Assembly: GCF_964204645.1 (NCBI RefSeq)
Contig: NC_134036.1
Coordinates: 9,465,859 to 9,529,858 of the forward strand
Source: Tubulanus polymorphus
Lineage: Eukaryota > Animalia > Nemertea
Direction of reading: 5' to 3'
Length of the DNA stretch: 64,000 nucleotides
The position numbers and the translations under genes are program-made. Positions 15,001 through 58,533 of this stretch are shown one piece after another. A model generated the notes under the pieces. That model searched no databases and was not told the DNA's origin. It saw nothing but the letters and a program-made list of their open reading frames with translations. Every line of letters begins with the position of its first letter. Within the stretch, counting starts at the first letter, position 1.

Positions 15001-15472
15001 CTTATTGGGAGATGAATTCTGAATAAGTAACGAAAATTGAACCGGTAAAGTCGAAAATCTGAATAAGGAACAAGGAACAAGTTACTTGTTCCTTATTGGG
15101 CGGTGAATTCTGAATAAGTAACGAAAATTGAACCGGTAAAGACGAAAATCTGAATAAGTAATAAGTAACAAGTTACTTGTTCCTTATTGGGAGATCAATT
15201 CTCAATAAGTAACGAAAATTGAACCGGTAAAGTCGAAAATCTGAATAAGGAACAAGTAACATGTTACTTGTTCCTTATTGGGAGATGAATTCTGAATAAG
15301 TAACAAGAAAATCTGAATAAGGAACAAGTAACATGTTACTTGTTCCTTATTGGGAGTTGAATTCTGAATAAGTAACAAGAAAATCTGAATAAGGAACAAG
15401 TAACATGTTACTTGTTCCTTATTGGGAGTTGAATTCTGAATAAGTAACGGAATAAGGAATAAGGAACAAGTA
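14995..15472. repeat. Tandem array (72-90 bp units) built on a 36-bp perfect palindrome
   Basis: AATAAGGAACAAGTAACA|TGTTACTTGTTCCTTATT occurs perfectly at 15244-15279, 15316-15351 and 15388-15423, with degenerate copies upstream. Confidence 0.93.
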
Positions 15473-17094: not shown

Positions 17095-17445
17095 CAACCC
17101 ATCCTCCCCCGGCAGGGATTCGAACCTGATGGCATCGAGATTGCCACGGCACGAAACCCAGCCATAATCGACCGTGTGCGCAGACACATGCGCAGTTCAG
17201 ATGATGGGATTTTTAGCCAATCAGAAATCCCGTTTTATTTTAGCCCGGGTTTTCCCATTTATAGTTCTTCCTTGAAATTTGCCTCAATGATTATACAACG
17301 AGCAATCTGATTGGTGCCGCCAGTTTTCGTTCGGAAAGCTGCGCATGTACCTGCGCACCCGGTCTACTGATGCAGCGGTTCGTGCCGTGGCTGAGTGTAG
17401 CGATGCCATCAGGTTCGAGTCCCTGCAGAGGGAAGATGCCACAAC
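17095..17445. repeat. Palindromic MITE-like element with tRNA-like (B-box) arms
   Basis: GCAGGGATTCGAACCTGATGGCATCG...GCCACGGCACGAA is mirrored by TTCGTGCCGTGGC...CGATGCCATCAGGTTCGAGTCCCTGC. Inner ACATGCGCAG and CCAATCAGA motifs are mirrored too. Confidence 0.65.
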
Positions 17446-18266
17446 CACGCTCGTCATTGTATGAGTGTACACACGCAGGCTTATGGCGAAATGAGTGTTA
17501 CAAATTGAACCAGAGAAATATAGAATACCCATATATAATACCCGTTATTGTAACGTTCATAGAATATGAAAGATGTCGGCAGAGTGAAGGACACGAAGTA
17601 CCTACCCTACCGGGGTTATATGAAACGCATTCGGTCGTGACAAGCATCCACAAGTTAAGGCTAGGCGCAAGATTAAACTATGGCTCCAAGGTCTTTTAGT
17701 TCTGGAGTGTTATACACATTAACGGTAATTGTATTTTACTGAAGTGTTACCGGAATATGCGGATTTAAGTTGTAAGAATCTAACTATGAATCAATGATTA
17801 ATGCTTGATTACATAACTTCATTTCTACAGCGGATTTTCAAACAGAAATATTTCTCGTCCATCTACAAAAAAAGCTTTGATAAACTTCTGTTTGTATTTG
17901 TGTGTTGCATACAAAAATGATCAACGAAAAGGAAAAGATTCAACATAGGTAGAAAGAAAATTAAGATTTTCCAAACTGTTTTATTATATATTTGTAGCTG
18001 TATAACAATCGAATTTAATTAACTGAATATCACACTGTTACCAGGCCACAGAAAATACGGTTTCAAGTTGTATGACTTCGTGGGGTGGGGGATAAGGGGG
18101 AAGGGGATTATATTTAATGATTAAAAGGCTGCGGTTCATAGTAACCATTTTACACTAATAGGTCCATTGAAACGATTTTCAAGGGCAGTGATTTCTTTAT
18201 CAATATCCAATTCTCAAACAAAATGTCCTACTGTAAATCGATGTGAATAAAATTTTAAATCAGTGG

Positions 18267-19175
18267 TTATTTGATTGAATTTCTACAGCAGATTTTCGTA
18301 CAGAAATATTCACGAATTTCTCGTCCAAGTAAAAGATATATGTAGAAATTTACCACATAGTTACACATTACGAATTGTGTGAAAATGTCATACAGAAATT
18401 CTTTCCGTTCCGTAAGGATTGGTAAAAATGCAGCAATAGTGGTTGGAAGTGTGAATATTGCAAATGCGAGTGAAACTGTTACAAGCATCATTGTTGTACG
18501 TTTCGATTTTGTAGTTTTCTTATCAGACGAAAGCATTTTTGTACCTCTGAATAACTGAATAATTATGATAGAATTTGATATTAGAATCAAACATAGATAA
18601 AGATTAGATAAAGGCAAAACAAAAGCGTAGACACCAAGCGGAGTAAGAAATTTTATTTGGACAATCAATTCATAGTAACATCCGAAAAACTGGTCGGAAA
18701 AATGTATCGACAAAACAGCGGGAATTTGATCCAGTCCAGTCACTGAAGTTATTATCAATATAGCAAATCTAGCGAATCTAGGTGTACATATCAAACGCGA
18801 ACAGAACGGAAAGAGAACAACTGCCGCACGTTCTAGAGCTATAGCTACCTATAACCAGGAACTGCTAGAATTGGCACCTGCCATCAATATTTCATATATC
18901 TTACAACTGATCAGTGAATTCATGATGAATATAAGACTAGTGTTTAGATTCAAGAGAACAAACTGTAAAAAAGGCATCAGTGTAAAATGTATACAGAACA
19001 GGAAATCACAGACTGATAAAATGACAAGATAGTTAGTGTAAGATAAACTGCGGAATCTGCGACTTGTCATTATGAGAAAAGTAGCTGAATTTCCAAAGAC
19101 TCCAAACAGAAACACGATAGGCAGAATGACCAAGGACACAGTACGGTACGTTCCAGACCTGTTCTGCACCGACAT
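18267..19175 (-). pseudogene. Single-exon class A (rhodopsin-like) GPCR, peptide-receptor-like; frameshift near 18850
   Basis: GN in TM1, LSVCD in TM2, SSSWL..A.ALER..VV.FP in TM3, NFYIY in TM7. Split into ORFs 18849-19175 and 18267-18794. Paralog of 48087-49034. Confidence 0.88.
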
Positions 19176-19470
19176 TAGAACGACGTAACTGCTATACGTT
19201 CGACCAATTCGAATCTAAGTTGAATTCATGATTCACGAGAATTAACTCAGTTCGGTATGCTCCGACCTGTTCACTACACGCATTATAGCAATGTAACTGT
19301 TTAACTGCATCTGAGTTGAATTCATGATTCGATTAAGTGTCAGAGGTGTGTGCACTGATTGTATCAATAGACCGACGATAAGTGCAAGCCATGACGTATA
19401 TTCATTTACGCACACAATTTATTGTTCGCAACAAATGAAAAACAAATTCTCAGAAATCTGACTGAAATTA

Positions 19471-19960
19471 TTAACCCGTTAGCACTCAAACCACCCGAAT
19501 TTGCCCGGCACTTTTTTCGTATGTTGCACGAAAACGGTTATAGTGGGACTCGAGCCCAAAAGCTTATGATAAACTAGACATCTAAGTTCTTGAAATACCG
19601 AACAACTGAAGATAATTTATTACATGGTTCTGGAAAAAATTACAAAATACAAAAGATAGAACCTCAAAGCACCCGAATTTGCCCGGCACTTTTTTCGTAT
19701 GCTTCATGAAAACGGTTATAGTGCGACTCGAGCCCAATAGCTTATGATCAACTAGACACCTAAGTTCTTGAAATACCGATCGGAAATCAACATCCTCCTA
19801 TTTCAATTTCTCGAGTATTTCAAATTTGAACATGACACATCTGAGCGCTCACTTCGAAATAGAACTCTGCTCTTTCAACACTGCGGACCTTGTTGTAGAA
19901 AGAAGTGACATTCTTTTAAGTCTGATTTCCCACTCAACTTTTGGCAAGAAGCAGCAGAAA
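19471..19960. mobile_element. Non-autonomous DNA-transposon fragment upstream of the GPCR (possible piggyBac-like TTAA-CCC end)
   Basis: Starts TTAACCCGTT and has an internal ~110-bp direct repeat (~19493-19600 / ~19670-19780). Related sequence lies at ~49300-49540 and ~55040-55520. No second terminus found. Confidence 0.35.
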
Positions 19961-22900: not shown

Positions 22901-24840
22901 ATTATCAAAATTAAACCGCAACTACGTTCGGATTTTCAGTAACTGCCATCTGACTTAAAGCTCAAATCACTGGAATCACAGCCAAAACGTTGCGGTTTCA
23001 TCTCAACACATGTTATCATATTAAGAGTTCTATTACGGTATTTCTTCATTCATGACCTCAAGGTGAAGATCACCAAAGGCCGTTACCGTAACCCAAATGA
23101 AATCTTGAATACTATACGAAATTTCTTATTTCTATTAAATTCGGCCTCAGTTCGGAAGATTTCTTTAGAATGCATTGATAGATCCACATAAATCTATTAT
23201 AGATACAGCATATTTTATTTTTTTCAAATCAACATTTCAGCGAAATTAATATAAAATCATGGGAGGTTCGAACACTCCAAAATGCACATCTAAATTTATG
23301 ATGCAAAGACATCCAGACCCCCGTTGAAAATAAACCACCATTTCAATAATGAGAGGTTAGCCTGCATTTATGATTACGCTTCTAATAGAAATAAAATCAA
23401 AATATGAATGCAGACATGCTTGAAAATAGCTGCATTTGTTAAAATCGAATTCTGCATTAAACTAATATCGCCATAAAAAGAAGGAAATTTCGATTCATCG
23501 TAAAACTCCATAACCAATGACAAGTTGTAAACTTATTTACTCCAATCTCGATTTTTATTGGTTAGACTATCTTCAGAGCTTAACTGAGACACTCAAAATA
23601 CAACTATATCCCAAACTATAGCGTGGGTATAGAATTTTCCACTAGTTTCTCAATGTGTTCATGTTGTCACGTATCACCGACATGGGGTCAGGCCCTCATC
23701 CATTTTTCTGACGCTTGAACATCATTTTTTTCATCGCCTGCTGTTAAAGGATACCAGTGTAAAACCGTTATTGTCGTATTTCTGCATAGCGTTACATTCT
23801 GAAATTCTTCAACAGTTCGTGGGCTTAGATAGATTTTAACCTTCATTTTATACATCAGATAATCGTTATTATCCTTTTTACATAAAACATGCCTGAAATT
23901 GTGAGCATATACCATTCCTAATTTCAACTAAGAAAGTGCTCAGAAAGCGCCTAAACGCATCTCATTCTTCAAAGACCACACCCCTTTTGTGCCTTATGCA
24001 CCTGTGGCCCTTTCTCCAAAAGCTAGATTCTGGAACATTTTACTGAATTACTCAATGGCATTTATTTCAAGTCTGCCCCCCCCGCGATCATGCCACTCTC
24101 CAAAAGCGTCTTCTTTTCAGTTTGGATTCGCTTGCCAGATTCCCTGTTATAAATAGCGACATATGCTTCAGATTTGCAGTGATACGTGGCAATATAAACA
24201 GCGTATAAACAGTAGTGCAAAACTGTATGCAAACGCTATAGTTTTCAGGGCAGTTAAAATATTCTGAATATGCTCTTTGAGGATGTGAAATATATGAGCG
24301 ATAAAACTCTAACCGATAACCATCGAGCTAAATCTGTTTGTATAATGTGATAAGTTTTGAAGTTTTAAGATTAATCGAAATTGCCTTTATTTCATGGCAA
24401 TAATTTAATGAAAATTCAATTGGAAGATTAAATGCAGCTTTTTCAAGTATAGGTCAACATGATTTTTGTCATTAAAATGGTTTATTTTCGGAAAAATACC
24501 CCAGTAAATATCCCCCCGGTAAAAATCTCCTCTAGGTAAATGTCCCCCTTTGCTAACAGCAACATTTAATAAAATACTTCAATATTCTGATTTTGAAAAG
24601 CTTAAATCGTTTCAAAAATTTCAAATTTTCCGTGTTGTCTTTCCAAATATTCATCTTGAATAATCTGTGACTTTTACTAAGCTGCGTACCTACATATAAG
24701 ATGACATAATTCGTGACTTTTAGCAAGCAACATGCGTAAAAAATGATGATATTATCAGATGTAAGATAAAACCCACTATTTAAAAATCAAAAGAAATCTA
24801 AAATCGAGAATTATTTATTGAAATAATCTAAAATGTAAGA

Positions 24841-27174: not shown

Positions 27175-27366
27175 GAGTAATAGGGATAATAGGCTTCCAG
27201 GTTAAAGGTCGAAGGGTCGAGCTCGTAAAAAAATGAAAATAACTATAATTTACAGTTGAATTAGTCGCGCACACTCCTAATTCAACTGCAAATTATTGTT
27301 ATTTTCATTTTTTACTCACTCGCCCCTTCAACCTTTAAACCTGAAAGCCTATTACCCCTATGACTT
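27175..27366. other. Long imperfect hairpin (~90-bp arms) upstream of pPolB
   Basis: GAGTAATAGGG...CAGTTGAATTAG / loop TCGCGCACACTC / CTAATTCAACTG...CCCTATGACT. Homologous hairpin at 56109-56236. Confidence 0.9.
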
Positions 27367-27643: not shown

Positions 27644-30600
27644 ATGGAAGCAAATAAGTACTACTGTCCAACATGTAATATCAATATAGATAAATCCCAA
27701 AAAGCAAGACACAATTAAACTAAAACACATTTAGAGAATAAATTGAAACTAGAATATAAAGATGATATATTAGAAACTAAATTAGATGAAATAAAGAATG
27801 AAAAAGAAACATACAAATGTGATACATGTAATCAAACATTCAGTGATAAAGATATTATAATGAACATTTAAAATCTAAAAGTCATATTAGAAAAAAGAAT
27901 AATGATGTTTTAGGTTAAGATTATTTTGATGAAGATAATGATAAGAAACAGAAGACAATTAAAAACATAAAAGATATATTAAACAATAAAAGACCATACA
28001 TGGAAGATGTAAGAAAATATATTAATTCATTAGATAATAAAAAAGATATAGAGATTACCGAAGCATTTAAAAGTGATATTGGCCCAGCAGCTATTGAGTT
28101 TAAATTTCATAAAGGAAAAACAGAAGAAAATAAAAAAACATTTAGAAAATATGAAAGAAATAATAAAAATAATTACAGATGTTGAATATCCTAAAATAAG
28201 TATATCTTCTAAAGTAAAGTTTATAAAATCTGAAGATAAACCAATATATAATATAAATTCTCATTCACAACATATTATATCTAAACAACATATAGATGAT
28301 AAATTAGATAAATGTTATAATGAAGTAAAAACTAAAATAGAAGAGAAATATTTTGAAGGATCTGGTTTAATATTTGATGAAATAATATTTATGACTTTAC
28401 ATGTTTATAACACAAAATATAATAAGTTAACTAAATCAAAACCAATTGATGAAAATAATGTATCATATTATAAAGAACCAGATATTGAAGCATCGAGTTA
28501 TATTAAACTACCATTTAAAACTAATGCTGTAATAAATGTACAAAATGAAGATGATAAATGTTTTCTATGGGTAATAATAAGTTGTTTACATCCTGCAACT
28601 TATAATATTTGTAGATTAACTCATTATAAACCATTTGAAAATAATTATAAGATAGATAAGTATCCTGTTATAAATAAAAACATCCCAAAGATAGAAAGAG
28701 ATAATAATTTAAGAATAAATGTATTTGATTTAATCAAATTACCAAATATAAAAGGTAACAACATAAAACATTATACATTAGAACCTTTATACCTATCAAA
28801 AGATTATGATTCAAACGATGTTATAGATATACTATATTATGAGAATCATTATATGTGGATTAAACAAATAGATTTATTCTTTAGAACAGAAAGTGATCAC
28901 CATAATAAAATATATCTATGTAGAAAATGTTTACATAAATTCAGTAATGAAAGTACATTATTAAATCATAAACAATTATGTGAAAATCATGATTATTGCA
29001 AATTTGTTTTACCAAATGAAAAGGATAAAATATTAGAATTCAAAAAATATGATTACAAAAATAAAGTACCATTTGTAATATATGGAGATTTTGAATCATT
29101 AAATAAGGAACTAACTGATCAAGATAGAAAAGAAATATATTATAACAGAAAGAAATTAAATTCTAATGAAAATTATTTTTCATATGAACCACCAATAACA
29201 AATACAATTAAAAAGATTCATCAATCAGCTTTTGGATTATATATTAAATCTGATTATCCAGAACTAATTGAAAGTGAATATTATGATTATAGAAATGAAA
29301 ATGTTATCAATCATTTTTGTGACTTATTAATTGAATATGAAATAAGATTTAGTAAATTATTGAATACAAATATAGAAATTATAATGACAGAAGAAGATAA
29401 AGAAGAATTTGCGTTTGCAGATAAATGTTATTATTGTGAAAAGATATTTAATTATAAAGATAAAAAAGTAAGAGACCATGATCATTTGAACGGAAGGTTT
29501 AGAGGCGCTGCACATGAGAATTGTAACTTACAAGCTAAGAAAATTAATTTTGTACCAGTTATATTTCATAATCTATCAGGATATGATGCACATTTATTCA
29601 TCAAACCGTTATGCCATAAAATAGAAGAAATTAATAATGAAATAGAAAGATTAGATTCAAATAGATCAAAAGATAAAATACCAACTTATAAATTTAGAAT
29701 GTTAGCTAAAACATCTGAGAATTACATATCATTCCAATTTGGGTGTCTAAGATTTATAGATTCATATAGATTTTTAAATAGTTCATTAGATAACTTATCA
29801 AAATCATTAGTTGATGATGAATTAAAGATATTAAAGCAACACTACCCAAATAATGATGATTTTCAATTAATGAGATATAAAGGCGCAATTCCATATCCAT
29901 TTTATAAATCACATAATGATTTTAACATAACTGAATTATTAAAAGAACAATTCTATGATGAATTAAAAAATGAATATGTTAAAGATGAAGTATATAATAG
30001 AACATTGAATATTTGGAATCATTTCAAAATAGAAAATCATGGACAATTAGTAGATTTATATTTGAAATCAGATGTATTATTATTAACCGATATATTAGAA
30101 AGGTTTAGAGATGTAAACCTAAAATATTTTAACATTGATCCATGTCATTGTTATTCATCACCAGGTTTACCATGGGATTGTGGATTAAAATTTACAGATA
30201 TAAAAATGGATTTGTTAACCAATATAGATCAATTATTATTATTTGAAGAATCTATAAGAGGAGGAGTTTCAGGTGTATTAGGTGATAGATATTTCAATGT
30301 AAATGATGACGCTGGATATAAGTTATTATATATAGATGCAAATAATTTGTATGGTTGGGCAATGATGGAACCACAACCTTATGGAGTATTTGAATTAACT
30401 GAAGTTTTACAGAATGAAAATAATGATAAATTTGATTGGAAGAAAATAATTCTAGATATTGCAGATGATTCAGATACTGGTTACTTCTTTGTTGTAGATT
30501 TAGAATATCCTGAACACATTAAATTTAAATCTAGAAATCTAGCTTACTGTCCCGAACATAAAACTGTCACACATGAAGAATTATCAAATTACCAAAAAAG

Positions 30601-31363
30601 AATTAAACCCGAAAATCATATTCATACAGAAAAGTTAATGGTAACTCAAGAAGATAAATATAATTATGTAGTACATTATAGAATGTTAAAGTTTTATCTA
30701 AAACAAGGAATGATCCTAAAAAAAGTACATAGTTATATTTCATTTAGTCAATCTAAGTGGTTAGAAAAATATATAGATTTTAACACCAAACAGAGAACTG
30801 AAGCTAAATCTGATTTTGAGAAAGATTTCTTCAAACTAATGAACAATGCATTCTATGGTAAGACTTGTGAAAATATCAGAAATAGAAATGATATTGAGTT
30901 AGTTAGTAATGGTAAAAGAATTAGACATTTACAATCATATCCTAAGTTCATTGGTAACAGAATATTTGATGACAATTTAGCTGCAGTTAAAATGAGAAGA
31001 ACATCTATGAAATTTAATAAACCAATTTATGTTGGTGCTTCAGTTTTAGAATTATCAAAATTACTAATGTATGAATTCTATTATAATGTATTACAACCAC
31101 TTTTTGGAGAAAAACATATAGAAATCTTATATTTTGATACTGACAGTTACATATTAAAGATAAAAACTGATAACATAACTAATGATTTAAAAACATTAAA
31201 ACATCATTTTGATTTCAGTAATTATCCTAAAGATCATGAATTGTTTAGCAATGATAATAAAAAAGTTCCCGGTAAATTCAAAGATGAATTAGGTGGCGAA
31301 GAAATGATTGAATTCATTGGTATTAGATCTAAAATGTATTTTTTTGATACTGATTTTTTTTAA
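27644..31363 (+). pseudogene. polB: Protein-primed family B DNA polymerase (pPolB), intein-free allele, with N-terminal zinc fingers and an inserted HNH/EndoVII-like domain; main ORF 28073-31363
   Basis: ExoI IYGDFES, CYYC..VRDHDH..GRFRGAAH..CN, FHNLSGYDAH, FIDSYRF, YIDANNLYGWAM (motif A), KLMNNAFYGKT (motif B), YFDTDS (motif C). The N-terminus from ATG 27644 (CPTC..H, CDTC..H) is broken by stops and frameshifts, and the C-terminal thumb is truncated. Confidence 0.95.
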
Positions 31364-35989: not shown

Positions 35990-38900
35990 TAAAATTAATA
36001 ATTTAAAAATATATGTATTCGAATTAATGCAATAACCAAAGACAAAAGGTGAAAATATTAAGGATTATACATTGGAAGCTTTATATTTAACAGAATATTA
36101 TGATGATGAAAATGCTATAGATTTGTTATATTACAAAAAAGATGAAAATGAACATTATATGTGGTTAAAACAAATTGATTTATTCTTTAGCACAGAAAGT
36201 GATTTTAACAGGCATAAAATTTATCTATGTAGAAAATTTTTATCTAAATTTAGAACTGAGAATGCTTTACTAAAACATAAAGAATTATGTGGTAATAAAG
36301 ATTTTTGTAAATTTATAATGCCAACAGAAAAAGATTATAAATTGAAATTTACTAATCATAAATTTAAGAATATTGTTCCATTTGTAATTTATGGGGATTT
36401 TGAATCGTTCAATAAAGAATTAACTGATCAAGATAGAAAAGAAATATATAACAAAAAGCAATTATTAAAATCAATGGATAAAGGAAATGAATTAAATGAA
36501 GACACAACACAAGATCCGCCAATTATAAACACAATTAAAAAAGTTCATCAAAGAGCTGCTGCTTATGGAATTTATATGAAATCAAATTATCCTGAATTAT
36601 ATGAAAGTCAATATATTTCTTTTAGAGGTGAAGATGTAGTTAATGATTTTTGTGACAAAATGATTGAATTTGAAAGTGATTTTGCAAAATTATTAAACAA
36701 AAATAAAAGAATAGTTATGACAAAAGAAGATGAAATTGATTTTAATTATGCAACTCATTGTTGTTGTTGTGAAAAAAACGTTTTCATTCATTTGATAAAA
36801 AAGTAAGAGATCATGATCATTTAAATTCAAAATATCGTGGAGCTGCTCATGAAGATTGTAATTTACAAGCTAAGAAAGTTAATTTCGTACCAATATTATT
36901 TCATAATTTATCAGGCTATGATACCCATCTATTTATAAAACAATTATCGAGAAAATTGGGCGCAATTAATCAAGAAATAGAAGAATATAATGCTATGAAT
37001 GGTGTAAATGTAAGAACTATTAGCTAAAACATCCGAAAATTATATTTCATTTCAATTTGGTTGCATTAGTTTTTTAGATTCTTATAGATTTCTTGCAAGT
37101 TCATAAGATAATTTATCAAAAAGTTTAGTTGATAATGATTTTATAATAACTCGATATTATTATCCAAATGAACAAGATTTTAAATTATTGAGATATAAAG
37201 GTGCAATTCCTTATTCATTTTATAAAACACACAATGATTTTAATGTAACAGAATTATTAAAAGATCAATTTTATGATCAATTAAAAGAGGAGTATGTGAA
37301 AGATGAAGTGTTTAATAGTACATTAAATATTTGGAACCATTTTAAGATGAAAAATCATGGTGAATTAGTTGATTTATACTTAAAATCAGATGTTATGATA
37401 TTGGCTGATATATTTGAAAAATTTAGAGAAGTTAATTTGAATCATTTTAATGTTGATCCTTGTTATTGCTACTCTAGTCCTGGTTTAACCTGGCAATGTG
37501 GTTTAAAATACACAAATGTAGAATTAGATTTATTAAAAGAACCAGACATGGTTTTATTATTTGAAAAATGAATTAGAGGTGGAATTAGTGGTGTTATGGG
37601 AGATAGGTATTTTAAAGCAAATGATGAATATAAATTATTATATATTGACGCCAATAATTTATATGGTTGGGCAATGATGCAACCTCAACCATACACAAAT
37701 TTTATATTGACAGAAGTTGAAAATGATGATAAAACTGATTGGGAAAGCGCAATTGCGAGTTTAAAAGATGAAACACCAATTGGTTATTTCTTTGTAGTTG
37801 ATTTAGAATATCCTGAAAATATAAAGTTTAAAACAAGAAACTTACCTTATTGCCCAGAACATTTAACCGTAGATGATAGTTATTTAAGTGAATACCAGAA
37901 GAAAATAAAACCGAAAGATCATGTTTTTACAGAAAAATTAATACTTACTCAAAATAATAAATACAATTATATTGTTCATTATAGAATGTTAAAATTTTAT
38001 CTAAAACAAGGAATGAAATTAAAGAAAGTACATAGATATATTGAATTTTTAATCAATCGAAGTGGTTAGAAAAATATATAGATTTCAATACTCAACGGAG
38101 AACCATATCAAAAAAAGATTTTGAAAAAGATTTCTTCAAATTAATGAATAATAGTTTTTATGGTAAAACATGCGAAAATATTAGAAATAGAAATGATATT
38201 GAATTAGTAAATAATTCTGAACGATTAAGACATTTACAATTAAGTCCTAGACATTTAGGAAATAAAAGATTTGAAGATTAGTTAACAGCAGTTAAATTAA
38301 AAAGAACGTCAATGAAATTTAATAAAGCTATATTAATTGGTTCAACTGTTTTAGAAGTATCAAAATTATTAATGTATGATTTTTATTATAATGTTTTACA
38401 ACCACTTTTTGGGGAAAAGCATATTGAAATATTGTATTTTGATTCTGTAACAGCTGACACCCCAATATTATTAAAATGTAATGATAAAATATTGATAAGA
38501 AGAATTTCAGAAATAATTCCCAAACAAAATGAATGTTATATTTCATATGGTGAAAAAGAATTAATACAAATAAATGGTTTAATGGATGTTTGGACAAGAA
38601 ATGGATTGAAAAAATTAAAGAATATTATTAGGCATAAAACAAATAAGAAAATCTATAGAGTTAGAACTAAATTAGGGTTTGTAGATGTTACAGAAGATCA
38701 TAGTTTAACTAAACGAATTGGCGATGAAATAAAACCAACTGATATAAACATTGGAGATGAATTATTACATAAAAGATTTTTCCAAAGAATGAATCATATG
38801 TCATTCGACGAAATTATTGATAATATTCATAATATAGAACCTGAAACATTAGAAGAAAAAGAATATTTTATCAAAGGATTTTTCATGGGTGATGGTTCAG

Positions 38901-39964
38901 CAGGTGCGTATAATTATGTTTGGGGTAATAAATATTGTTGGTATTTATGCAATCAAGACTTAAAATTATTAGAAAGAATTAAGAAATTCTGTGAAGAAGT
39001 TTATTCACATAAAACATTTAGAATCATGGATGTTATGAAATCATCAGCAGTTTATAGAATACTTGTAAATAATCCTAAAGATTTTGCTATAAAATATAAT
39101 GATGAATTCTATATTCATGCAATAGTGAAAAGTAATACTTCAACAAAAGAAAAGATAGTTCCAGATTATGTATTAAATGCAAAAAATTATTTAAGAAAAT
39201 GGTTCTTCATTGGATTCTACGCAGCAGATGGTGCTAAAAAATTTACAAAGGATAAAAAGAAAACCTTTGCACAGATAGGAAAAGTTGCTTTATCGGGGTT
39301 AAATATATTATGTAATTCATTAGGCTTCAATATGAATATTGGATTGATTAAATCTAAAGGAAATTGCTTTAATTTAAGCCACACAGAAAAAGATTTAACT
39401 GAAGAAGTTAAAGATTTATTTGAAATATATAACCCAACAGATTATGTTTATGATTTATCAACCGAAGATGGCACATTCACCTGTGGATTTCCATTAATTT
39501 GCTTCATTACTGATGCGTACATACTAAAAATCAAGACAAATGACATAACAAAAGACATAAAAACATTAAAACATCATTTTGATTTTAGCAATTATCCCAA
39601 AGATCATGAACTATTTAGCAATGATAATAAACAAATTCCTGGTAAATTTAATAATGAATTAGGGGGTGATGAAATGATTGAATTTGTTGGGATAAGAAGT
39701 AAAATGTATAGTTACAGAACAAAAGATCATGAAGCTACAAAGTTAAAAGGAATAACAAAGCATGTGGTTGATAAACATATAGAATTTCAAGATTATATAA
39801 AGTGTTTATATAACTCAATTGTAATGAAACACAAAATGAATTGTTTAAGATCAGAAGATCACGAGATGTACATTAATGAAGTTGAAAAAACTAGTTTGAA
39901 TCCATTTGATGATAAAAGGCATATTTTAGATGATGGTATAAAAACATTACCTTATGGTTATTAA
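35990..39964 (+). pseudogene. polB: pPolB, intein-containing allele; several frameshifts and stops upstream of the intein
   Basis: Collinear with copy A: IYGDFES, VRDHDH..YRGAAH..CN, YIDANNLYGWAM, KLMNNSFYGKT, YFD[intein]TDA, GIRSKMY, KLKGI, DDKRHIL.DGI.TLPYGY*. Fragmented into ORFs 36072, 37188, 37596 and 38312. Confidence 0.95.
38444..39508 (+). mobile_element. Intein (355 aa) with LAGLIDADG homing endonuclease in pPolB motif C
   Basis: In-frame 1065-bp insert absent from copy A. Block A SVTADTPIL, block B VDVTEDHSL, LAGLIDADG motifs FIKGFFMGDGS and FFIGFYAADGA, block F YVYDLSTEDGTF, and +1 Thr. The terminal residue reads Ile (ATT) where Asn (AAT) is expected. Confidence 0.95.
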
Positions 39965-41288
39965 AATGGATCAATATCATCAAACTCGAAATCGCTATTG
40001 GCTTCTTCATTTTCATTTAATTGTTCTTGTATAATTTGTTTAGGTTCTTCCATTTCATTTTTCTCATTTAAATAACGTGTTATATTGTGCCACATTTCAT
40101 CTCGCTCTCTTTGTTTCTTTTTGTTCGTCAATTCATCAAATGGAAATATAATATCTATGTTTAAATAATTTACAATCTTATTAAAAAAGAGTTCATAATT
40201 AGTTGAATCTGTTATTCTATTATCCACATAATATCTTAATATTTGTTTGAATGTTTCTTTTATATTTTCCATATCTTCTTCTGTTAATTTAGGTTTTTCA
40301 TAATTATCGTTAAATAATAAATATAAATACATTTTCTTTTGTTTTGTGTTAAATGTTGATGGAATAATTGTTTTTATAATATCTTTTTTAGTTATTTCAC
40401 CATTTTTATTTTCTATTTTTTTCATTTTTTCAAGCCATTGCATATATTCTGGTGTATGATCTTCTATAGAAAATATTTTAAAAATGTCATCTAGATAATT
40501 TAATTTTGGTTCTACGAGAAATTCTCTAGTTTTTTCATCACCCCATAAATTCTTTTGCCATCCACATTCATTACAAAATAACACAGTACCTTCTTGTCTT
40601 AAGGTCGCATAAATACATTGTGGGCATTTTTGTTTATAATTTATTGGTGATAGATCTTCATTAAGCTCTTGGTATTTTTTTACGTTTTCTTTATGTTTTA
40701 TTGTTCTATTATGTAGATTTTAATTACTTGTTGTAATAATCAATTTACAATATTTACAATAATATGTTTTTCTTGTTAATTCATTATATTGTTTTTCTAA
40801 CTTTTCAACTGTTTCTTTATTATCTGGTAACGTTTTCTCATAATTCATTTTTTCTAATATTTTATTTTTTCTTTCATTGAATTCTGCTTCAAATTTATTA
40901 GAAATTTTTATCTATATGTACTTTACGAAATTGATGATTCTCCCAATCTTCTATATTTTCAGGGCTATATTTTATTCGACAAGGCTCACAGAAATAATCT
41001 TTTATATTATCCTTATCATAGAATAAGAAAGGTCTTTTCCAAATAATTTCAGATTCAACTTCAACAGAATTACTATTACTTTCATTACTATCAACATTAG
41101 CCGTTGCGCCATTAATTTTACACTTCTCTGAATGATTTTTAACATAATTTCTTGAGAATAATTTATTACATTTAGGGCAGTTTATTTTAGGGGGTTTATA
41201 ATTTTCATCGTGTTTTTTTCATATGTCGAGCCATATTACTTTTTCTTAGAAGTTCACCACAAATTTCGCATGGTATCTTCTCATCCAT
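39961..41288 (-). pseudogene. Multi-zinc-finger protein fused to a VLTF3 (poxvirus A2)-like late transcription factor domain; open C-terminal ORF 39961-40584
   Basis: From ATG 41288: four CxxC..H fingers (two frameshifts, one stop), then a CPQC-x12-CNECG zinc ribbon and F.QI...NY..FF.KI...L....FP...L...K.RERD.MW..I...L, matching my recollection of the VLTF3 C-terminus. Confidence 0.68.
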
Positions 41289-41357
41289 TTATTTAGGAAA
41301 AATTTTATCAAAATTAATTTTTAGTGATGAGCGGTAATTTTTTTATGTTATAAATAA

Positions 41358-42020
41358 ATGGTAGAATTAAAAGAATACAGAATATTTGTTGATTCTAGAA
41401 AACTTTCAAATTATAAATCACATAATTTACTAATACAATTAGATAGAGAATTTGAGAATTGTGTTGATTTAAAATTAGTAAATATAAGTTTATGTAACTC
41501 ATTTTACAATATATCGGATAAAAGTCTAGAACATTTAATTTTTTCAATCTTTTACAAAAAAAGGAATAAATGTTTTTTTATATATTTAAAACCAGGATTA
41601 TATAATTTAGATACATTAGCACAAGAGATTAAATGAAAAGCTCGAGCTGAATTAGGAAGTGATTCCGGATTTAGTATTAGATTTTCAAAAAGTCATAGTT
41701 CTAATAAAAGAAGGTAGATCAAATTTAATGCCTTTTACACACTTTTATATTTATTGCAATTTAATCGATCCTACACAAACATTTGATTGAAGCAACTAAA
41801 GATAAAACTTGCAATTCTAGTATACTAAATATTTTTACCATTAAAAAATGTTAAACAATTTGGAACTCAAATAAATTTTAATTTAACAGAATGTGATTTT
41901 AAACTTTGCATTCCACATTTCAATAATTTCAAATTAGAAATAAGAAATCATAATGGTTATTTAATTGATTTAAATAACTTTCCTGTGATATATGAATTAG
42001 TTATAAGATGTAGAGAGTAA
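41358..42020 (+). pseudogene. Minor capsid protein (penton)-like, disrupted
   Basis: IFVDS..L.IQL......LKLV.....NSFYNIS...YLKPGLYNLDTL, then FYIYCNLID and FKLEIRNHNGYLIDLNNFPVIYEL in downstream frames. This pattern is typical of Polinton single jelly-roll proteins. Confidence 0.7.
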
Positions 42021-42036
42021 TTTTTTCATTATATAA

Positions 42037-42297
42037 ATGAATATAACTGTTGGACCGAGTATATGTTTTGGGTTTGATTTTAAACATGAGAAAGAAATGA
42101 AATTAAACATTAATGATGTAATAACACATATTAAAAATATTGCATTTTCTAATGAAACAACATTTGAGTATGAAACAACAATAGATAATGAAACTTTAAA
42201 TGTAGAAAAGATTACTAATTTAATTAGAGAATCTTTAAGATTTTATGAATTAGTTGAACATTTTATCATCGATGATATTAAAAAAAATAATAATTGA
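42037..42297 (+). CDS. Polinton hypothetical protein
   Basis: ORF preceded by the shared TAAATG motif. Confidence 0.6.
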   Translation: MNITVGPSICFGFDFKHEKEMKLNINDVITHIKNIAFSNETTFEYETTIDNETLNVEKITNLIRESLRFYELVEHFIIDDIKKNNN

Positions 42298-42393
42298 AAT
42301 ATATACAAATGAAACTGGTATTGAAATAAATGTTGAATTAATCATTAATAAGTTAGCTAAATATTTTGAAGATAGTATTTTTTTTATTAATAA

Positions 42394-42615
42394 ATGAGTG
42401 ATAATAAGTGGATAATAACTGGATTATATAATGGAGCATTACTATCAGTTGGAACTGTTGGTTATTCAATGGTATTAAAGAAAGTATTTAAAATGGGAAG
42501 TGTTAATGTTGATAGATTTGATATCAATGATATTTTAAAATTAACATTAGCAGTTACTTTATCTAATTTAACTATTGATCATTTGGAAAAACAAAAATAT
42601 ATTCCTCCTATATAA
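42394..42615 (+). CDS. Small Polinton membrane-associated protein (73 aa)
   Basis: Intact ORF with the shared motif and two hydrophobic or amphipathic segments. Confidence 0.7.
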   Translation: MSDNKWIITGLYNGALLSVGTVGYSMVLKKVFKMGSVNVDRFDINDILKLTLAVTLSNLTIDHLEKQKYIPPI

Positions 42616-42639
42616 ATGCGTAATTATTTTACTAAATAA

Positions 42640-43062
42640 ATGGCTTCTGCAGTTATAACTATTATAGGATCAGCAATTGTTAACGCTTTAGCATTTACTG
42701 GTGGTGGTTATTTATTTAAGCATATCGATAAAAATGGGTCATTAACAGAACAAAAAAGACATAACTTAGCATTAGAGAAATACAATAAAGCTGCAGAAGA
42801 ATATAGAGAAAAGAGGCAAAACTACATGGATTATATTAACAAGGAATTATATGATCAGAAGACTTCACATAGAGATTTTCAATCAGTTGATGGTGCAATG
42901 AGTTTATATAACGCGGTAACCAATAAAGAACAATTACATCTATACAAATCTAAATTATCAGATTATTATACCCCGAGTAAAGAACAACAGAAATATGAAA
43001 TAATATGGATTTTAGGTGGAACTGTTATTGTTATATATGTAGCATATAGATTTACTAATTAG
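42640..43062 (+). CDS. Polinton protein with N- and C-terminal hydrophobic helices and a central coiled coil (140 aa)
   Basis: Intact ORF with the shared motif; IIGSAIVNALAFTGGGYLF...KRHNLALE...WILGGTVIVIYVAY. Confidence 0.75.
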   Translation: MASAVITIIGSAIVNALAFTGGGYLFKHIDKNGSLTEQKRHNLALEKYNKAAEEYREKRQNYMDYINKELYDQKTSHRDFQSVDGAMSLYNAVTNKEQLHLYKSKLSDYYTPSKEQQKYEIIWILGGTVIVIYVAYRFTN

Positions 43063-43082
43063 TAATTTTTTTTGCTAAATAA

Positions 43083-43508
43083 ATGGATGATAATATTGAT
43101 AATATTCCTCATGATATAAATAAACATAAATTAAAAATATATTTAGAAAAACAAATATTAGAATTTGAAAATGATTTAAAAGTTAAGAAGAAAAAATATT
43201 TAAAATCTAAAATTATTTATTGTTTTATTAATAGTGGTTCGGTTACAATTAGTTCTGTAATAACATTTCTAGCAATATTCAGCCCACTAACACCTTTAGC
43301 TATATCAATTGGTGTATTAGGATTAAGTTCAAGTGTTTTAACTGGTATAAGTTGAAAATTAAATATAAAAAGTAATAAAGAAAAAATTAAAACTAATATA
43401 AAAGAAATTAATAAATTAAAGAATACACTAGATTATATAATAAGTTTAAATGGTCATATAACAGTTGAAGAACAAGATAAATTATTAAAAGAATTAATAA
43501 ATTATTAA
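43083..43508 (+). pseudogene. Polinton two-TM, coiled-coil protein with one in-frame stop (43353-43355)
   Basis: Hydrophobic hairpin SGSVTISSVITFLAIFSPLTPLAISIGVLGLSSSVLTGI. The frame continues past TGA to TAA at 43508, just before the next gene motif. Confidence 0.65.
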
Positions 43509-43523
43509 TTTTTTATCATATAA

Positions 43524-44836
43524 ATGGTAGATAGTTTTCCAAAAGCTTTCCAATATTATAAATCAATTAAATATAATATTCCAGCAATAGATTTTACTAA
43601 AGATATTTCATATAGAAATGAAGTTTTAAATTCATTAATTGATTTATATATTTATGTTACTGAAAGTAATAATTTTCATGTAAAGATGGAAAATATATTC
43701 AATGTTTATGAAATTAATTTTAAAGATTTAAATGAGGCAAAACAATGGTTATTAAAATCTTATATGAAGTATTGGCAGAACCAATTAAATTTTGCTGTTT
43801 ATTGTGCAACAACAGGATGTGGAATTAGTTGGAATGATCATTTGAATAAACCAAGTTTACCATTGATGTTATCACTTTTTAGATTGCATACTTATTTTCA
43901 AATAAAATTAATATTAGATGAATTAGAATGTCCTTTACCAGGTTCAAAATACTTTAATGAACTAAATAATAATATTAATTTTTCAAAGTTTTATAAATTA
44001 TGTAATGAATTTAATATTAATTCAAATAAAGATTTTAGAGCAAAAATTGGAACAATGGGTGGATTAGGAATATTATATACTAAAGAATTTGGAAAAATAA
44101 GGACAAATTCAGATATAAGAACACTAAATTGGAATGAATTACCAAAATATTATAATAATATACAACAACAAAACAATAATGGTTGGGTTAATTTCATTTT
44201 AGAAAATATTGAAGGTTTTACTAAAGCTGGAATACAAAGAATAAATCAAACTTATTTGATATGTATTTTAGGCGCTCAAGTTGAAACAAGATCACCAATA
44301 GTTGGAAATGATAACACTTCATTTGATGCGCAGAAACAATTCAAAGTATTATTTGAAGATTCCATTCATAATGATAAAAATAGATCGATTCCAGAAAACA
44401 TTGTAAGATATCAAAATTATTTAGATAAATCTCATGTAAGACTAAATTATTGTATAGGCCCTAAACTTTTAATTATTGCTAATGATTTAGTACTAAAGCT
44501 GGGAAACATAATTGGTTATAATAATCTAACTAAACTGCAACAGTAAATAATTCATTTGGGTTGAATGATATAAATAAAAAGATTATTACTGCCCCAAAAT
44601 TAATGGAAGGTGAAAAAAATAAAAAACATATTCAATCAACAGAAACTAAAACTAAGAATATTAAATTCAATAATGATTCTAAACCGGATTATAATACATC
44701 AGAAAATATTAAAACTGATAATATTCAACAGGATATAATTAAAACTGATAATGATAATAAATTCCATGAAAATACTAAATTAGCTTTAACTTGTATAGGA
44801 ATTGTAATCGGAGGAATGTTATATTTTAAATTTTAA
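43524..44836 (+). pseudogene. Conserved Polinton hypothetical protein with a C-terminal TM anchor; ORFs 43524-44546 and 44561-44836 are probably one frameshifted gene
   Basis: YWQNQLNFAVYCATTGCGIS motif. The second ORF lacks both an ATG and the TAAATG motif and ends in LALTCIGIVIGGMLYF. Confidence 0.65.
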
Positions 44837-44851
44837 TTTTTTATTATATAA

Positions 44852-46308
44852 ATGGATGTAGAAGGTGGAGAAGATATTGGAATGGATACTTTTGATGAAC
44901 CTGGCATAACTGATGAACAACAACCTGATTTTAGTGAAACAAGTTTTAATGACGGTAATGAGCCAGAATATAATAACAATTTAAATATGCCTGATTATAT
45001 TAAAAATGCAGAATCACAATTAAATCCTGAAAATTTAGACCCAGATTTAGTAAAACAAGATTTAGAAAATTTAAACAAAATACCTAAATTAGAACGTATA
45101 ATTGAAAATTCTAAATTTAACATAAATGATGAAGACGTTGGACCTTTAGCAGATAAATTAAAATTTTTAGATAATGGTAAATGGTATTATCATTTGAAAG
45201 ATGATTATTATATTGATATCACTTTTAAAAATGAAAACAAAATATTAGCAAAATCAACTTTAGACAAATTAGAACCAGGTAGAATTAAAAGAACTAGTAA
45301 TAGTAATGTAATAACTGATGTTATAAAACAAGAATTAACTGTAAATGATATAGACGTATTTAAACAAAAAATTAATGAATTATTTGACAAAATCAAAAAG
45401 AAATCAGAAACAGAAATAACTTCTGAACATAATATAACTTCCAATACTAGTAAACTTAAATCAAATAAATTGAAAAACTTTTACCGAATGGATTAATTGA
45501 TGCAACAGATCAAGAATTAGAAGATTTAAATAATATATTTTCTGTTGAAGCAATTAGAGAAATAAAAAGTATATGACTTGCATCTGATAAAATTGCGCAT
45601 GATATAAGTATAAGAGATTTTAAAATTCGAACTTTAGAAAAAGAATTAACTGATAAAAATAAAGAAATAGAACAATTAACGTCTGATTTAGATCATCAAG
45701 TAATTGATGTAATAGAATATAGGCAAAAAGAATTACGTTTAGAAAAAGAAATAGATGATTTAAAATATAACATAGAATTACAAAAAGAAAAAATTAAATT
45801 ATTATTAAAATCATATGATTATAATGTTAATAGATTAAAAGTTATTTTTAAAGATTTGTTGATAAAACCAAATTCTGAAATATCATTAAAAGATAGAATA
45901 AAGTTATTATTTAAATTAGAAGGAATAACAATTCTTTCAATTCTAACAGCTGTAACTATGTTATTTACAGCAATTGGTTTAGCAATATCAAATTCTTTGA
46001 AATCTACTCCTACTCCCAATAAACCGGATAAACCCCCGAATGATAATAATTCTATACAAGATAAAGTTAAGGATGGTTTAAAGAAATTAGCCAAATATTT
46101 ATGGGAACTATCTAAAAAATCTGCTGCAGCATTACCCGGAATTATTGCATCAATTGTTGGTTTTATATTGAAATCTGCAGGTAATATTCTTAACTTTGCT
46201 GCTGAACATATTATTTCATTTTTAATTACAGTTGTAAGTGCTATTATTTTTGGGTTAGTGAATATGATATCAAAAAGATATCAAGAAAAAGTAATAAAAA
46301 ATAAATAA
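44852..46308 (+). pseudogene. Large Polinton protein (acidic N-terminus, coiled coil, C-terminal TM segments), disrupted into ORFs 44852-45496 and 45856-46308
   Basis: Single TAAATG start, coiled-coil-like coding between the two ORFs, and EGITILSILTAVTMLFTAIGLAI...KSAAALPGIIASIVGFIL. Confidence 0.65.
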
Positions 46309-46328
46309 TTAATTTTTTTGTTAAATAC

Positions 46329-46707
46329 ATGAGTGGGAGTTATATAAGTCCTTCTAAGATTTCTAGAATATCTATGCTATTAAAGCAGAAAGATCACATC
46401 ATATAATTACTCATAATCCTTCAAATATTAATCCCGATGAAACTTTATATGTTAGAATTCCTAGATTAACACAAAATACTTTTTATGTTCCAAATAGTAT
46501 TTATTTATCAGCCGATATAAAAGTAACTGGTCATGATAATAATTGTGTTGTCGATAATGTTGGGAGATATTTGATTAAAAAATTAACTATAAAGATTGGT
46601 CCAGAAACAGTTTTCTCATTAGATGATTATAATTTATTTATGCATTATAAAGATTTATGGTTAACTAAAGAAAATAGAAATAATATGATATTTCAAGGCA
46701 TTCAATC
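46329..46707 (+). pseudogene. Major capsid protein (double jelly-roll) N-terminal third, frameshifted and truncated
   Basis: ERSHHIITHNPSNINPDETLYVRIPRL...YVPNSIYL...VVDNVGRYLIKKL.IK...VFSLDDY.LF.HYKDLWLT...R.NMIFQGIQ, matching my recollection of invertebrate Polinton MCP N-termini. Composition breaks at ~46707. Confidence 0.72.
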
Positions 46708-47207: not shown

Positions 47208-47288
47208 CTGTATGTAGTTGGCGTTGATATAGTCGCTATAAGGATCAGCGCCAGTCTCAACTTCCAGCACGACTCGAGAGGCATCATC
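47208..47288 (-). pseudogene. Orphan exon of a classical (receptor-type) protein tyrosine phosphatase
   Basis: DDASRVVLEVETGADPYSDYINANYIQ (PTP motifs DxxRVxL and DYINA) followed by donor CAG|GTAAT. The acceptor AG is missing. Confidence 0.82.
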
Positions 47289-56108: not shown

Positions 56109-56236
56109 TAAGTAATAGGGAATATATTGTTTCAAGCCAAAGGTCGAAGGGTCGAAAAATAATTTCTCGCACACTCGAATTTATTTTTCGACCCTTCAAC
56201 CTTTAACTTGAAACAACTTATTCCCTATTACTCTTA
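56109..56236. other. Long imperfect hairpin (~56-bp arms) homologous to 27175-27366
   Basis: AGTAATAGGGAA...AAAGGTCGAAGGGTCGAAAAATAA / loop CGCACACTC / TTATTTTTCGACCCTTCAACCTTT...TTCCCTATTACT. Confidence 0.9.
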
Positions 56237-56290
56237 TAATTTTCATATAATAACTTCTAAAATCAATTTTAATAAAAATATGTTATTAAA

Positions 56291-56628
56291 ATGGAGAGTA
56301 AACAAATACATAGTGAATTCTTAGATAGAATCAAAGATACTACAAATGTCAAATCTGTAGATTATAACTTTAAGAAGTTAACAGAATTAACAATTCATAA
56401 GAAATATATAATTACCAACATTGATACAGTTTCTAATAAATATGGAGATAAATTAATAATTCACTCTAGAATATGAAAGATTAAAAGGAAATAAATATAA
56501 ATTCAGAATTTATTTACCAGATAGATTTCATAGGTTATCTAGTGAAGATTTAGAAGAATTATGGTGATTTCTATTTCATATATTAGGGTAAGAATAAAAA
56601 AGAGCACCATGAAATAGATTTCGAATAA
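56291..56628 (+). pseudogene. Small Polinton ORF upstream of pPolB, frameshifted
   Basis: MESKQ...FKKLTEL...KKYII.....VSNKYG.KLII...FRIYLPDRF. Preceded by the same AAAATCAATT...TATTAAAATG motif as pPolB. Confidence 0.6.
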
Positions 56629-56664: not shown

Positions 56665-58533
56665 ATGGAAGCAATGAGAAATACCATTGTCCAACATGTA
56701 AAATCAATATAGATAAATCCCAAAAAGCAAGACAGAATAAAACTAAAACGAATTTAGAGAATAAATTGAAATTAGAATATAAAGATGATACATTAGAAAC
56801 TAAATTAGAAGAATTAAAGAATGAAAAAGAAATATATAAATGTGATGAATGTAATCAATCACTCAGTAAGAAAAGATATTGAAAAGAACATTTAAAATCT
56901 AAAAGTCATATTAGAAATATGAATAATGATATTTTAGGTGAAGATTATTTTGATAAAGATAATGATAAGAAACAGAAGACAATTAAAAGAATAAAAAATA
57001 AATTAAACAATAAAAGATCATACATAGAAGATGTTAGAAATTATATTAATTCATTAGATAATAAAAAGAGATAGATATAACTGAAGCATTTAAAAGTGAT
57101 ATTGGTCCAGCAGCTATTGAGTTTAAATTTCATAGAGGTAAAACATTAGAAGAAAAAAAAACATTTAGAAAATATGAAAAATATGATAAGGATAATTACA
57201 GATGTAGAATACCCTAAAATTAGTATATCTTGTAAAGTTAAATTTATAAAATAAAATGTGAAGATAAACCAATATGTAATATAAATTCTCATTCACAACA
57301 TATCATATCTAAACAACATATAGCTGATAGATTAAATGAATGTTATAATGAAATAAAAAGTAAAATAGAAGAGAAATATTTTGAAGGATCAGGTTTTATA
57401 TTTGAAGAAATAATATTTATGGCTTTACATGTTTATAACACAAAATATAATAAGTTAACTAAATCAAAACCAATTGATGAAAATAATTTATCATATTATA
57501 AAGATGATAATATAAATGGATCAAGTTATATCAAAATACAATTTAAAACTAATGCTGTTATAAATGTACAAAATGAAGATGATAAAAGTTTTCTATGGTC
57601 AATAATTAGTTGCTTACACCCAGTTGAAGATTATAAACAACATAGTTTTAGATTAACACATTATAAACCATTTGAAAATGATTATCAGATAGATAACTAT
57701 CTTGTAAGAATTAAAAATATCCCAAAAATAGAAAGAGATAAAATTACCAAAAACATAAGGTAACAATATAAAACATTTTACATTAGAGCCTTTCTATTTA
57801 TCAAAAGATTATGATTTAAATGGTGTTATAGATATATTATATTATGAAAATCATTATATGTGGATTAAAAGAATTGATTTATTTTTTAAATCAGAAGATG
57901 ATTTTGATTATAAAATATATCTATGTAGAAAATGTATAACTAAATTCAAAACTGAAAGTGCATTATTAAATCAATTATGTGAAAATCATGATTATTGTAA
58001 AATGGTTTTACCAAATGAAAAAGATAAAGTATTAGAATTCAAAAAATATGATTACAAGAATAAGGTACCATTTGTAATATATGGAGATTTTGAATCATTA
58101 AATAAAGAATTAACTAATCAAGATAGAAAAGAAATATATTATAAAAGAAAGAAATAAAATTGTAATGAAAATGATGTAATTGATTATTCAGATCCTCTAA
58201 TAACAAATAATATTAAAAAGATTCATCAATCAGCTGCAGCTTTTGGATTATATATTATATCTGATTATCCAGAATTAATCAAAAGTGAATATTATATTTA
58301 TAGAAATGAAAATGTTATCAATCATTTTTGTGAATATGAAATGAAGTTTAGTAAACTAATAGATACAAATATAGAAATTATAATGACAGAAGAAGATAAA
58401 GAAGAATTTGAGTTTGCAGATAAATGTTATTATTGCGAAAAACTATTTAATCTAAAAGATAAAAAAGTAAGAGACCATGATCATTTGAATGGAAAGTTTA
58501 GAGGCGCAGCGCATGAGAATTGTAACTTACAAG
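56665..58533 (+). pseudogene. polB: pPolB 5' half (zinc fingers, terminal-protein region, ExoI, HNH-like), heavily disrupted
   Basis: Aligns by eye with 27644-29533 (NAVINVQNEDDK.FLW, VPFVIYGDFES, VRDHDHLNGKFRGAAHENCNLQ). Confidence 0.92.

Follow-up and report, generated by a model that had tools for sequence, protein, structure and literature searches.

The closest described counterparts of the structure reported here come from protists. Virophages of Halocafeteria seosinensis (subtypes 1, 2, 5 and 6) and a Polinton-like virus (PLV subtype 4) carry terminal palindromes beside their target-site duplications, and a hairpin-priming model has been put forward for them; in the available part of that report, the palindromes measure 52 nt in the figured subtype, have at most 4 mismatches and accompany preferentially replication genes other than pPolB (bioRxiv 10.64898/2026.07.28.741278). 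Terminal palindromes of protist virophages and Polinton-like viruses, mostly without pPolB, are known already. Some terminal repeats of casposons also contain palindromes (PMC4046053), bidnavirus repeats are described as forming no hairpin (PMC4061559), and vertebrate Mavericks end in (AGT)2 or (AG)3 (PMC8097293), each according to the accessible portion of the source. In the literature on Polinton and Maverick termini, covered as titles and the beginnings of abstracts, with most subscription papers and Repbase outside that scope, no animal Polinton with pPolB was found for which a long and imperfect hairpin at the terminus is described.

Linear genomes that are replicated from their ends offer further precedents, cited here from partial texts. 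Adenovirus and PRD1 use protein-primed strand displacement, with an ssDNA-binding protein (P12 in PRD1) and with intramolecular pairing that rebuilds the duplex end; the panhandle is the standing model for their displaced strands, direct evidence for it is lacking there, and the pairing partner lies at the other end of the genome (PMC11886824). Origins of phi29 show very little activity when their ends are single-stranded (PMC4150772). At the telomeres of Streptomyces, a folded 3' single strand with non-canonical pairs templates terminal-protein priming, and these telomeres have several short palindromes, an internal origin and end patching by Tap/Tpg (PMC4513846). Parvoviruses have at the left, where the minus strand has its 3' end, an imperfect hairpin that is kept mostly in one orientation and has one active arm, the origin forming on one side only; priming proceeds from the 3'-OH and needs a nick by NS1 (PMC1185569).

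The Tubulanus element described below shares something with several of these systems. Like the Halocafeteria virophages and the PLV, it is an integrating and probably double jelly-roll element that ends in a palindrome beside the host junction; unlike theirs, its hairpin is imperfect, measures 122 to about 258 nt, has polarised wobble and compensatory change, and comes in length classes that are symmetric, and it adjoins a pPolB with a predicted terminal-protein fold, in a likely animal host. With Streptomyces telomeres no homology is expected. Whereas adenovirus and PRD1 find the pairing partner at the far end of the genome, here it is 120-260 bases away, and whereas parvoviruses prime from a 3'-OH, the Tubulanus element encodes a protein-primed polymerase. 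What is new here is the longer, imperfect, polarised terminal hairpin in a pPolB Polinton.

The window, by which we mean the whole stretch of 64,000 nucleotides of Tubulanus DNA that was analysed, contains three truncated copies of one AT-rich Polinton (22-24% GC) inside DNA of 35-38% GC (Table 1), with a step in GC at the hairpin end of copy 1. The element resembles Polintons and Mavericks in its 5'-AGT start, its pPolB, rve integrase and probable capsid genes, and its many integrated copies (PMC8097293; bioRxiv 10.1101/2023.08.22.554363; both in part), and departs from the (AGT)2 end in its second triplet, which is AAT: the end letters are AGTAAT in the two hairpins of the window, H1 and H2, and in the relative L005, and AGTAAG in the relative L009, one or two bases off (AGT)2. 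The polymerase is of family B2 (Pfam PF03175, E 6e-14, above cut-off), its named relatives being those of spider, anemone, coral and abalone at ~36% identity. Together with the rhodopsin-family receptor genes of the window, these relatives point to an invertebrate as the likely host. Copy 2 holds pPolB pieces with an intein, several virion-type ORFs and what may be the start of a major capsid gene; that it encodes the start of a capsid protein is probable from the fragment at 46367-46706, for which a Pfam scan of the submitted ORFs gave Capsid_N at E 0.002, under cut-off. The rve integrase (E 6.5e-9) is present in the close relative L006 (77% polymerase identity) and absent from the truncated window copies, in which no packaging ATPase or maturation protease was recognised.

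Table 1. Positions of the hairpins, Polinton copies and adjoining genes in the window.
Feature	Positions	Strand	Remarks
Terminal hairpin H1, long class, 89-nt arms	27176..27365	-	Left end of Polinton copy 1
H1 arms	27176-27264 and 27277-27365		From alignment of the arms
Outer-arm end signature, H1	27176..27220	+	AGTAA at terminus; GGTCGA boxes at offsets 31 and 39 (27207-27212, 27215-27220)
H1 apical loop	27265..27276		Contains CGCACACTC
H1 inner arm	27320..27365	+	Looser complement of end signature
pPolB gene, copy 1	27644..31363	+	Zinc-finger start broken; cut off at about 31350
Open frame of copy 1 pPolB	28151-31363	+	Terminal-protein, vOTU-like, EndoVII-like and polymerase parts; predicted domain folds taken from the intact relative L005
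Polinton copy 2	35996..46706	+	Both ends cut, no hairpin remaining
Terminal hairpin H2, short class, 56-nt arms	56111..56232	-	Left end of Polinton copy 3, terminus 56111
H2 arms	56111-56166 and 56177-56232		From alignment of the arms
ORF1	56288..56625	+	Broken in three pieces; intact in L005 (571-936) and L007 (338-724)
5' part of copy 3 pPolB gene, broken	56665..58533	+	Cut off at 58533

The surroundings of the copies have features of their own. The copy 2 polymerase (38312-39964) carries an intein with a LAGLIDADG-like domain (Pfam, under cut-off) inside the DTD motif; the same insertion occurs in the metagenomic protein P0011, copy 1 is without it, and it is unusual to find an intein in a Polinton that resides in what is likely an animal genome. 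The segments 43939-49646 and 49667-55382 form a 5.7-kb tandem duplication of 99.8% identity, either recent or an artefact of assembly, which takes in a host receptor gene along with the capsid end of copy 2; the receptor gene, intronless and of the rhodopsin family, is present in two intact copies (48087-49034 and 53824-54771), and a third region, at 17454-19604, is 88% identical to it. Other repeats, at 17100-17438, 23416-24450 and 14991-15453, served only as controls and comprise a MITE-like element, a long degenerate inverted pair and a palindromic minisatellite.

A sequence-only reading of the window had described hairpins with arms of ~90 and ~56 bp, and alignment gave arms of 89 nt for H1 and 56 nt for H2. 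On the plus strand H1 has 78 Watson-Crick pairs, 5 A·C pairs, 5 other mismatches and 2 gaps, and H2 has 50 Watson-Crick pairs, 4 A·C pairs and 2 T·T; G·T pairs number 0 in both. The four A·C mismatches claimed for each hairpin were right for H2 and one too few for H1, and the claimed conserved A·C position was recovered in both, 34 bases from the end; a further one, 26 bases from the end, is common to H2 and L005. Folded as DNA, H1 reaches -59.6 kcal/mol on the plus and -70.1 kcal/mol on the minus strand (z -15.2 and -17.1, respectively, with 0 of 200 shuffles as good), and the 3' end of the better-folding minus strand is position 27176. The shared stem blocks that the reading had named are present, AAAGGTCGAAGGGTCGA occurring four times at up to 3 mismatches, once per arm, where 0.06 occurrences are expected, and AGTAATAGGGA three times at up to 1 mismatch, but the latter, a terminal block, is degraded in the right (inner) arm of H1. 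Similarly, the loop it considered kept, CGCACACTC, is found in both hairpins (27268-27276 and 56168-56176), but two of its positions vary in 36% and 47% of reads and the loops of the relatives L005 and L007 are different.

That the hairpin is located upstream of pPolB, as had been stated, was correct, but it proved to be the terminus of the element itself. A run that bears the species label of the best source was read to about 12%. In its raw reads depth climbs roughly twentyfold at 56111, reaching about 1100 from about 50-60, and at that base 422 reads continue out of the window into flanks whose agreement is only 0.35; these figures concern the left end, the only one observed, and would combine both ends if the element has matching terminal repeats, which reads cannot tell apart. 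The left flanks of H1, H2, L005 and L009 are unlike each other and unlike all other loci compared, both as DNA and as 60 translated peptides. The base of the hairpin is flush with the left end of the element. A palindrome formed at the junction of two terminal repeats, as in a circle or tandem array, was ruled out by the same flanks, which are unrelated and not element-like. Further inward, at 56780, 276 reads exit into one well-agreeing sequence (0.93) and depth falls by about a quarter; this exit may mark a variant subfamily, or else the point where a terminal repeat ends on its inner side.

The reads also address the case that the sequence-only reading had itself set against its proposal, namely a dispersed MITE unlinked to Polintons. 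The hairpin does resemble a short element with inverted ends starting AGT, and such an element might have inserted independently upstream of the Polinton. Depth at the hairpin base is, however, 785-860, below the 1500-1640 at the polymerase start, and where the inner arm ends it drops only from 860 to 732, so that ~85% continues into element sequence; because of these two observations there is no excess of solo hairpins. Moreover, the hairpin precedes ORF1 or pPolB at every locus that has one. The hairpin is tied to the Polinton, and an independent MITE is largely refuted and extremely improbable.

Relatives were sought among 119 polymerase loci (80 from metagenomes, 23 viral and 16 from prokaryote bins), and the six close ones that include the polymerase start region are L005 to L010. 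At 78% polymerase identity, L005 has a full hairpin in the same position, some 258 bases long, and the contig of L007 (77%) begins inside a hairpin, while the contigs of L006, L008 and L010 start too far inside to show one. The contig of L009 (64%) has the outer-arm signature but lacks an inner arm, a sign that the fold-back may be dispensable or has been lost. All four outer arms (H1, H2, L005 and L009) start with AGTAA and have GG[T/G]CGA boxes at exactly offsets 31 and 39, and four inner arms have complementary boxes at offsets 30-32 and 38-41. All 8 outer boxes retain the C, whereas 5 of the 8 inner ones have another base there (Fisher p 0.026, ignoring relatedness); in H1 one inner-arm box is TCAACC, which makes a G·T pair on the minus strand. 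The end signature of H1 is a candidate origin with putative protein-binding boxes.

The end signature is absent from the distant polymerase loci. Palindromes upstream of the polymerase were checked in 12 distant regions and none was counted as a homologue: those of L081 and L094 are strong but show no strand bias and have a different start motif, those of L016 and L020 lean to the plus strand, and those of L086, L090, L100 and L104 are AT-rich repeats. The palindromes of L081 (7526-7708) and L094 (4657-4840) are 180-190 bases long, start with TACTACTATA and lie about 0.8-1.2 kb upstream of distant polymerase matches, that of L094 between divergent genes inside a viral contig. A sequence-only model of five ends, run against 98 of 124 sources, found only its training loci below E 0.01. 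The end-signature pattern had 0 matches in viral contigs and the two-motif pattern 0 in metagenome contigs, and searches of the viral contigs with the window polymerase and P0011 found no relative. An exact 17-mer had 4 matches in viral contigs, 0 of them in a long palindrome, and these were set aside as chance. Polinton-type polymerases were also observed on contigs binned into bacterial or archaeal assemblies (L108-L123, P0009), which are probably contamination.

Pairing despite sequence change, another claim of the first reading, held over the outer 45 base pairs in three hairpins, H1 and H2 from one genome and L005 from a metagenomic relative. At least two types of Watson-Crick pair occur at 14 of the 45 positions, and the arms within a copy are 76-90% complementary, while between copies the outer arms are 48-62% identical over offsets 10-30. 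The 135 cells comprise 117 Watson-Crick pairs, 10 A·C pairs of the plus strand (G·T on the minus), 0 G·T pairs of the plus strand, 6 other mismatches and 2 gaps. These wobbles occupy 8 distinct positions, all of minus-strand polarity (8 of 8 at one half, p 0.004, one-sided), counts that come from three full hairpins, two of them of one genome, and are not independent events. The claimed bias toward minus-strand wobble is borne out accordingly; an earlier alignment of the whole L005 arms gave 4 to 1, its lone plus-strand G·T being in a bulged part where the alignment is ambiguous. Among the reads, 9 of the 11 variable left-arm positions listed face a partner that varies at similar frequency (Fisher p 1e-5), the frequencies being unphased and some rows inflated by indels between length classes. 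Two of the four A·C pairs of H2 are minority or near-half states among reads and not family-wide, and its wobbles at offsets 26 and 34 have no variant among those listed.

Strand-biased mutation was ruled out as the cause of this polarity, because substitutions in the element are strand-symmetric (per 1000, G>A 20.4 against C>T 21.5 and T>C 16.2 against A>G 15.8) and the other four inverted repeats of the window, taken as a wobble control, stand at 21 to 20. In DNA energies the minus strand is ahead of the plus strand by 10.6 kcal/mol in H1 and 4.1 in H2, but by only 0.4 in L005.

The hairpins also differ in length, and in a way that bears on what the covariation means. Besides the classes of 122 (H2) and 190 bases (H1), further ones are indicated by loose ends of 218-514 reads at the inner stem; when the loose-end cells on its two sides (494 and 514 reads) are compared by eye, 26 of 30 letters of one match the reverse complement of the other, and the unmatched block resembles the two halves of the loop, as if a new stem-loop had been placed within the old loop. 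Such mirror-image growth would need one arm to be copied from the other, and for this reason compensatory change alone is no proof of selection, as covariation can arise by arm-to-arm copying without it. Joints at which a read switches strand are rare (3-7 reads each).

It is conceivable, if on balance improbable, that the whole hairpin is a by-product of such copying, in which a template switch copied the end back on itself and so left the origin duplicated in inverted orientation, repeated gene conversion or copying by fold-back kept the arms alike and lengthened them, and the wobble polarity was inherited from a few early changes. Growth of both arms together speaks for copying and not for stepwise selection, and the state of L009, without an inner arm, and the small DNA energy difference of L005 are in keeping with it. 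So is the wobble shared at offset 34, a CpG-to-CpA change in a CpG-poor element: CpG observed/expected is 0.36-0.55 in the element, and since it is near 1.0 in the host-like DNA of the window (1-27100 and 59100-64000) the depletion is specific to the element. On the other hand, eight distinct wobble positions run in one direction in spite of symmetric mutation, and the hairpin is kept at the same place in L005 and L007, at 77-78% polymerase identity. Long palindromes are generally unstable, and its persistence for that reason suggests use.

The reading that we prefer, and hold tentatively at a little under an even chance, is that the hairpin is a fold-back DNA replication origin, in effect a local panhandle, acting on the strand that bears the 3' end. 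At a left end, protein priming uses as its template the 3' terminus of the minus strand, and it is the minus strand that has the better fold. The outer 45 bases would be the origin, in which a protein would prime at the AGT end and a binding protein would occupy the two boxes. The minus strand would be released when strand-displacement synthesis proceeds from the far end, and its 3' arm could then pair with the inner arm 120-260 bases away, rebuilding a blunt double-stranded end that carries the signature; there the terminal protein and the polymerase would start synthesis, pushing the inner arm aside. Since pairing is all that the inner arm would have to do, G·T pairs and bulges could be tolerated in it, and these might also make it less apt to act as a false origin inside the duplex; one arm would at times be copied from the other, as the mirror-image length changes indicate. 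A strict outer arm with a loose inner arm is what a fold-back origin predicts. Of the possibilities that the sequence-only reading had listed, a single-stranded replication signal is the one that best suits the terminal position, the covariation, the minus-strand wobble and the end signature. That the hairpins have kept CpG (observed/expected 1.0-1.4) in a CpG-depleted element also counts in its favour. A simple jump-back start is not evident from the AGTAAT end, an imperfect (AGT)2, and a local fold-back would be superfluous should the far end carry a long terminal repeat that matches.

The genes beside the hairpin are of interest in this respect. The N-terminal part of the L005 polymerase gave a confident fold (pLDDT 87), the best Foldseek matches of this domain being little-finger/PAD domains of Y-family polymerases (E 0.002-0.015), which is the fold assigned to PRD1-like terminal proteins in the available text of PMC11071308; the model indicates that the pPolB beside the hairpin bears a terminal-protein fold. 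In 62 of 62 rows of the polymerase alignment there is an invariant Cys and an invariant His, of the kind that vOTU proteases are described as having, and no OTU was among the Foldseek matches listed for the L005 model. An EndoVII-like domain at residues 413-461 matches at E 6e-5, slightly under cut-off. ORF1 lies directly inside the hairpin of copy 3 and is missing in H1-type copies, in agreement with a 380-base skip in reads. Its model (pLDDT 80) has as top Foldseek match the PRD1 ssDNA-binding protein P12 (E 0.014), followed by bacterial SSBs; a phage SSB is second against viral models (E 1.4e-4), and a second structure aligner gave OB folds at Z up to 5.8. With these coherent but weak fold scores ORF1 is a predicted candidate for an OB-fold ssDNA-binding protein of Polintons. 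Its family has 110 representatives, with Atlas neighbours mostly from arthropods and one Atlas row naming the phi29 SSB family (score 0.82), which is a lead only; Pfam and sequence searches of solved structures returned nothing useful for it.

The same 3' end could be put to use more directly, the minus-strand 3'-OH at the stem base serving as the primer itself and a nick, possibly by the EndoVII-like domain, resolving the product. We judge self-priming of this kind unlikely, although several points favour it: the 3' end is flush with the stem base, giving a palindrome at the very 3' end, the active outer and looser inner arms recall the parvovirus left end, and mirror-image growth would fit hairpin transfer. 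Against it, the terminal-protein fold is kept and the vOTU-like Cys and His are invariant, and no HUH nuclease was found in Pfam scans of the submitted ORFs, the element being seen incomplete. All five loci, furthermore, have one polarity, not an equal mix of flip and flop, although a minor class is possible and parvovirus ends of single orientation exist. Among the six loose ends listed (the lowest with 218 reads) there is none behind 56232, where depth makes only the modest step at the end of the inner arm, and the rarity of strand-switch joints also counts against self-priming.

A structured RNA from the minus strand, pre-miRNA-like or VA-like, was among the options of the sequence-only reading, and it has fared less well, as has a source of endo-siRNA. 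G·U pairs are more stabilising in RNA, in which the minus strand leads by 26 (H1), 11 (H2) and 15 kcal/mol (L005), and H1 and H2 have a conserved block of 17 bases in common. However, the window has 0 Rfam matches at the gathering score, the transcript would have to run outward to the last base of the element, and what is conserved is the distance to the DNA end, with which the stem base is flush, and not the loop or the stem length (122 to about 258 bases). Transcripts of Pol III end at runs of four or more T, and as such runs lie within the minus-strand stem (T7 in H1, T5 in H2 and T8 in L005), where they would end the transcript, they count against a Pol III RNA. We consider an RNA quite improbable as the selected molecule.

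More improbable still, to our minds, is that the end serves as a signal for integration or packaging, the boxes binding the integrase or the packaging ATPase and a hairpin or cruciform marking the end. The fixed spacing of the boxes from the terminus would suit this, an rve integrase is encoded downstream in L006, and the flank cell beside the terminus ends, by eye, in a palindromic hexamer. Integration of a duplex end, however, gives no cause for one strand to fold better than the other, and a cruciform folds both.

Taking the fold-back origin further, one may speculate that an animal Polinton lineage has swapped the genome-length panhandle for a self-contained fold-back end, with a strict and a sacrificial arm, that is renewed and lengthened by arm copying, in a hybrid of protein priming and hairpin transfer in which the EndoVII-like domain would resolve the fold-back and the P12-like protein would hold the strand; this extended version is doubtful.

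The broader relevance of the hairpin is in what it may say about how these elements replicate. Polinton replication has so far been modelled and not observed, the model in the available part of the literature being a single-stranded intermediate closed by the terminal repeats. Wobble that selects a strand, arms that covary between hosts and an outer arm with base-exact spacing are sequence evidence for a constrained intermediate with a single-stranded 3' end, and even the by-product reading, if true, would still document recurrent copying of arms at Polinton ends. The hairpin also offers a natural substrate, and a short one, for which the predictions of protein priming and of self-priming differ, and with it terminal palindromes are extended from elements of protists, mostly without pPolB, to a pPolB element in a likely animal genome.
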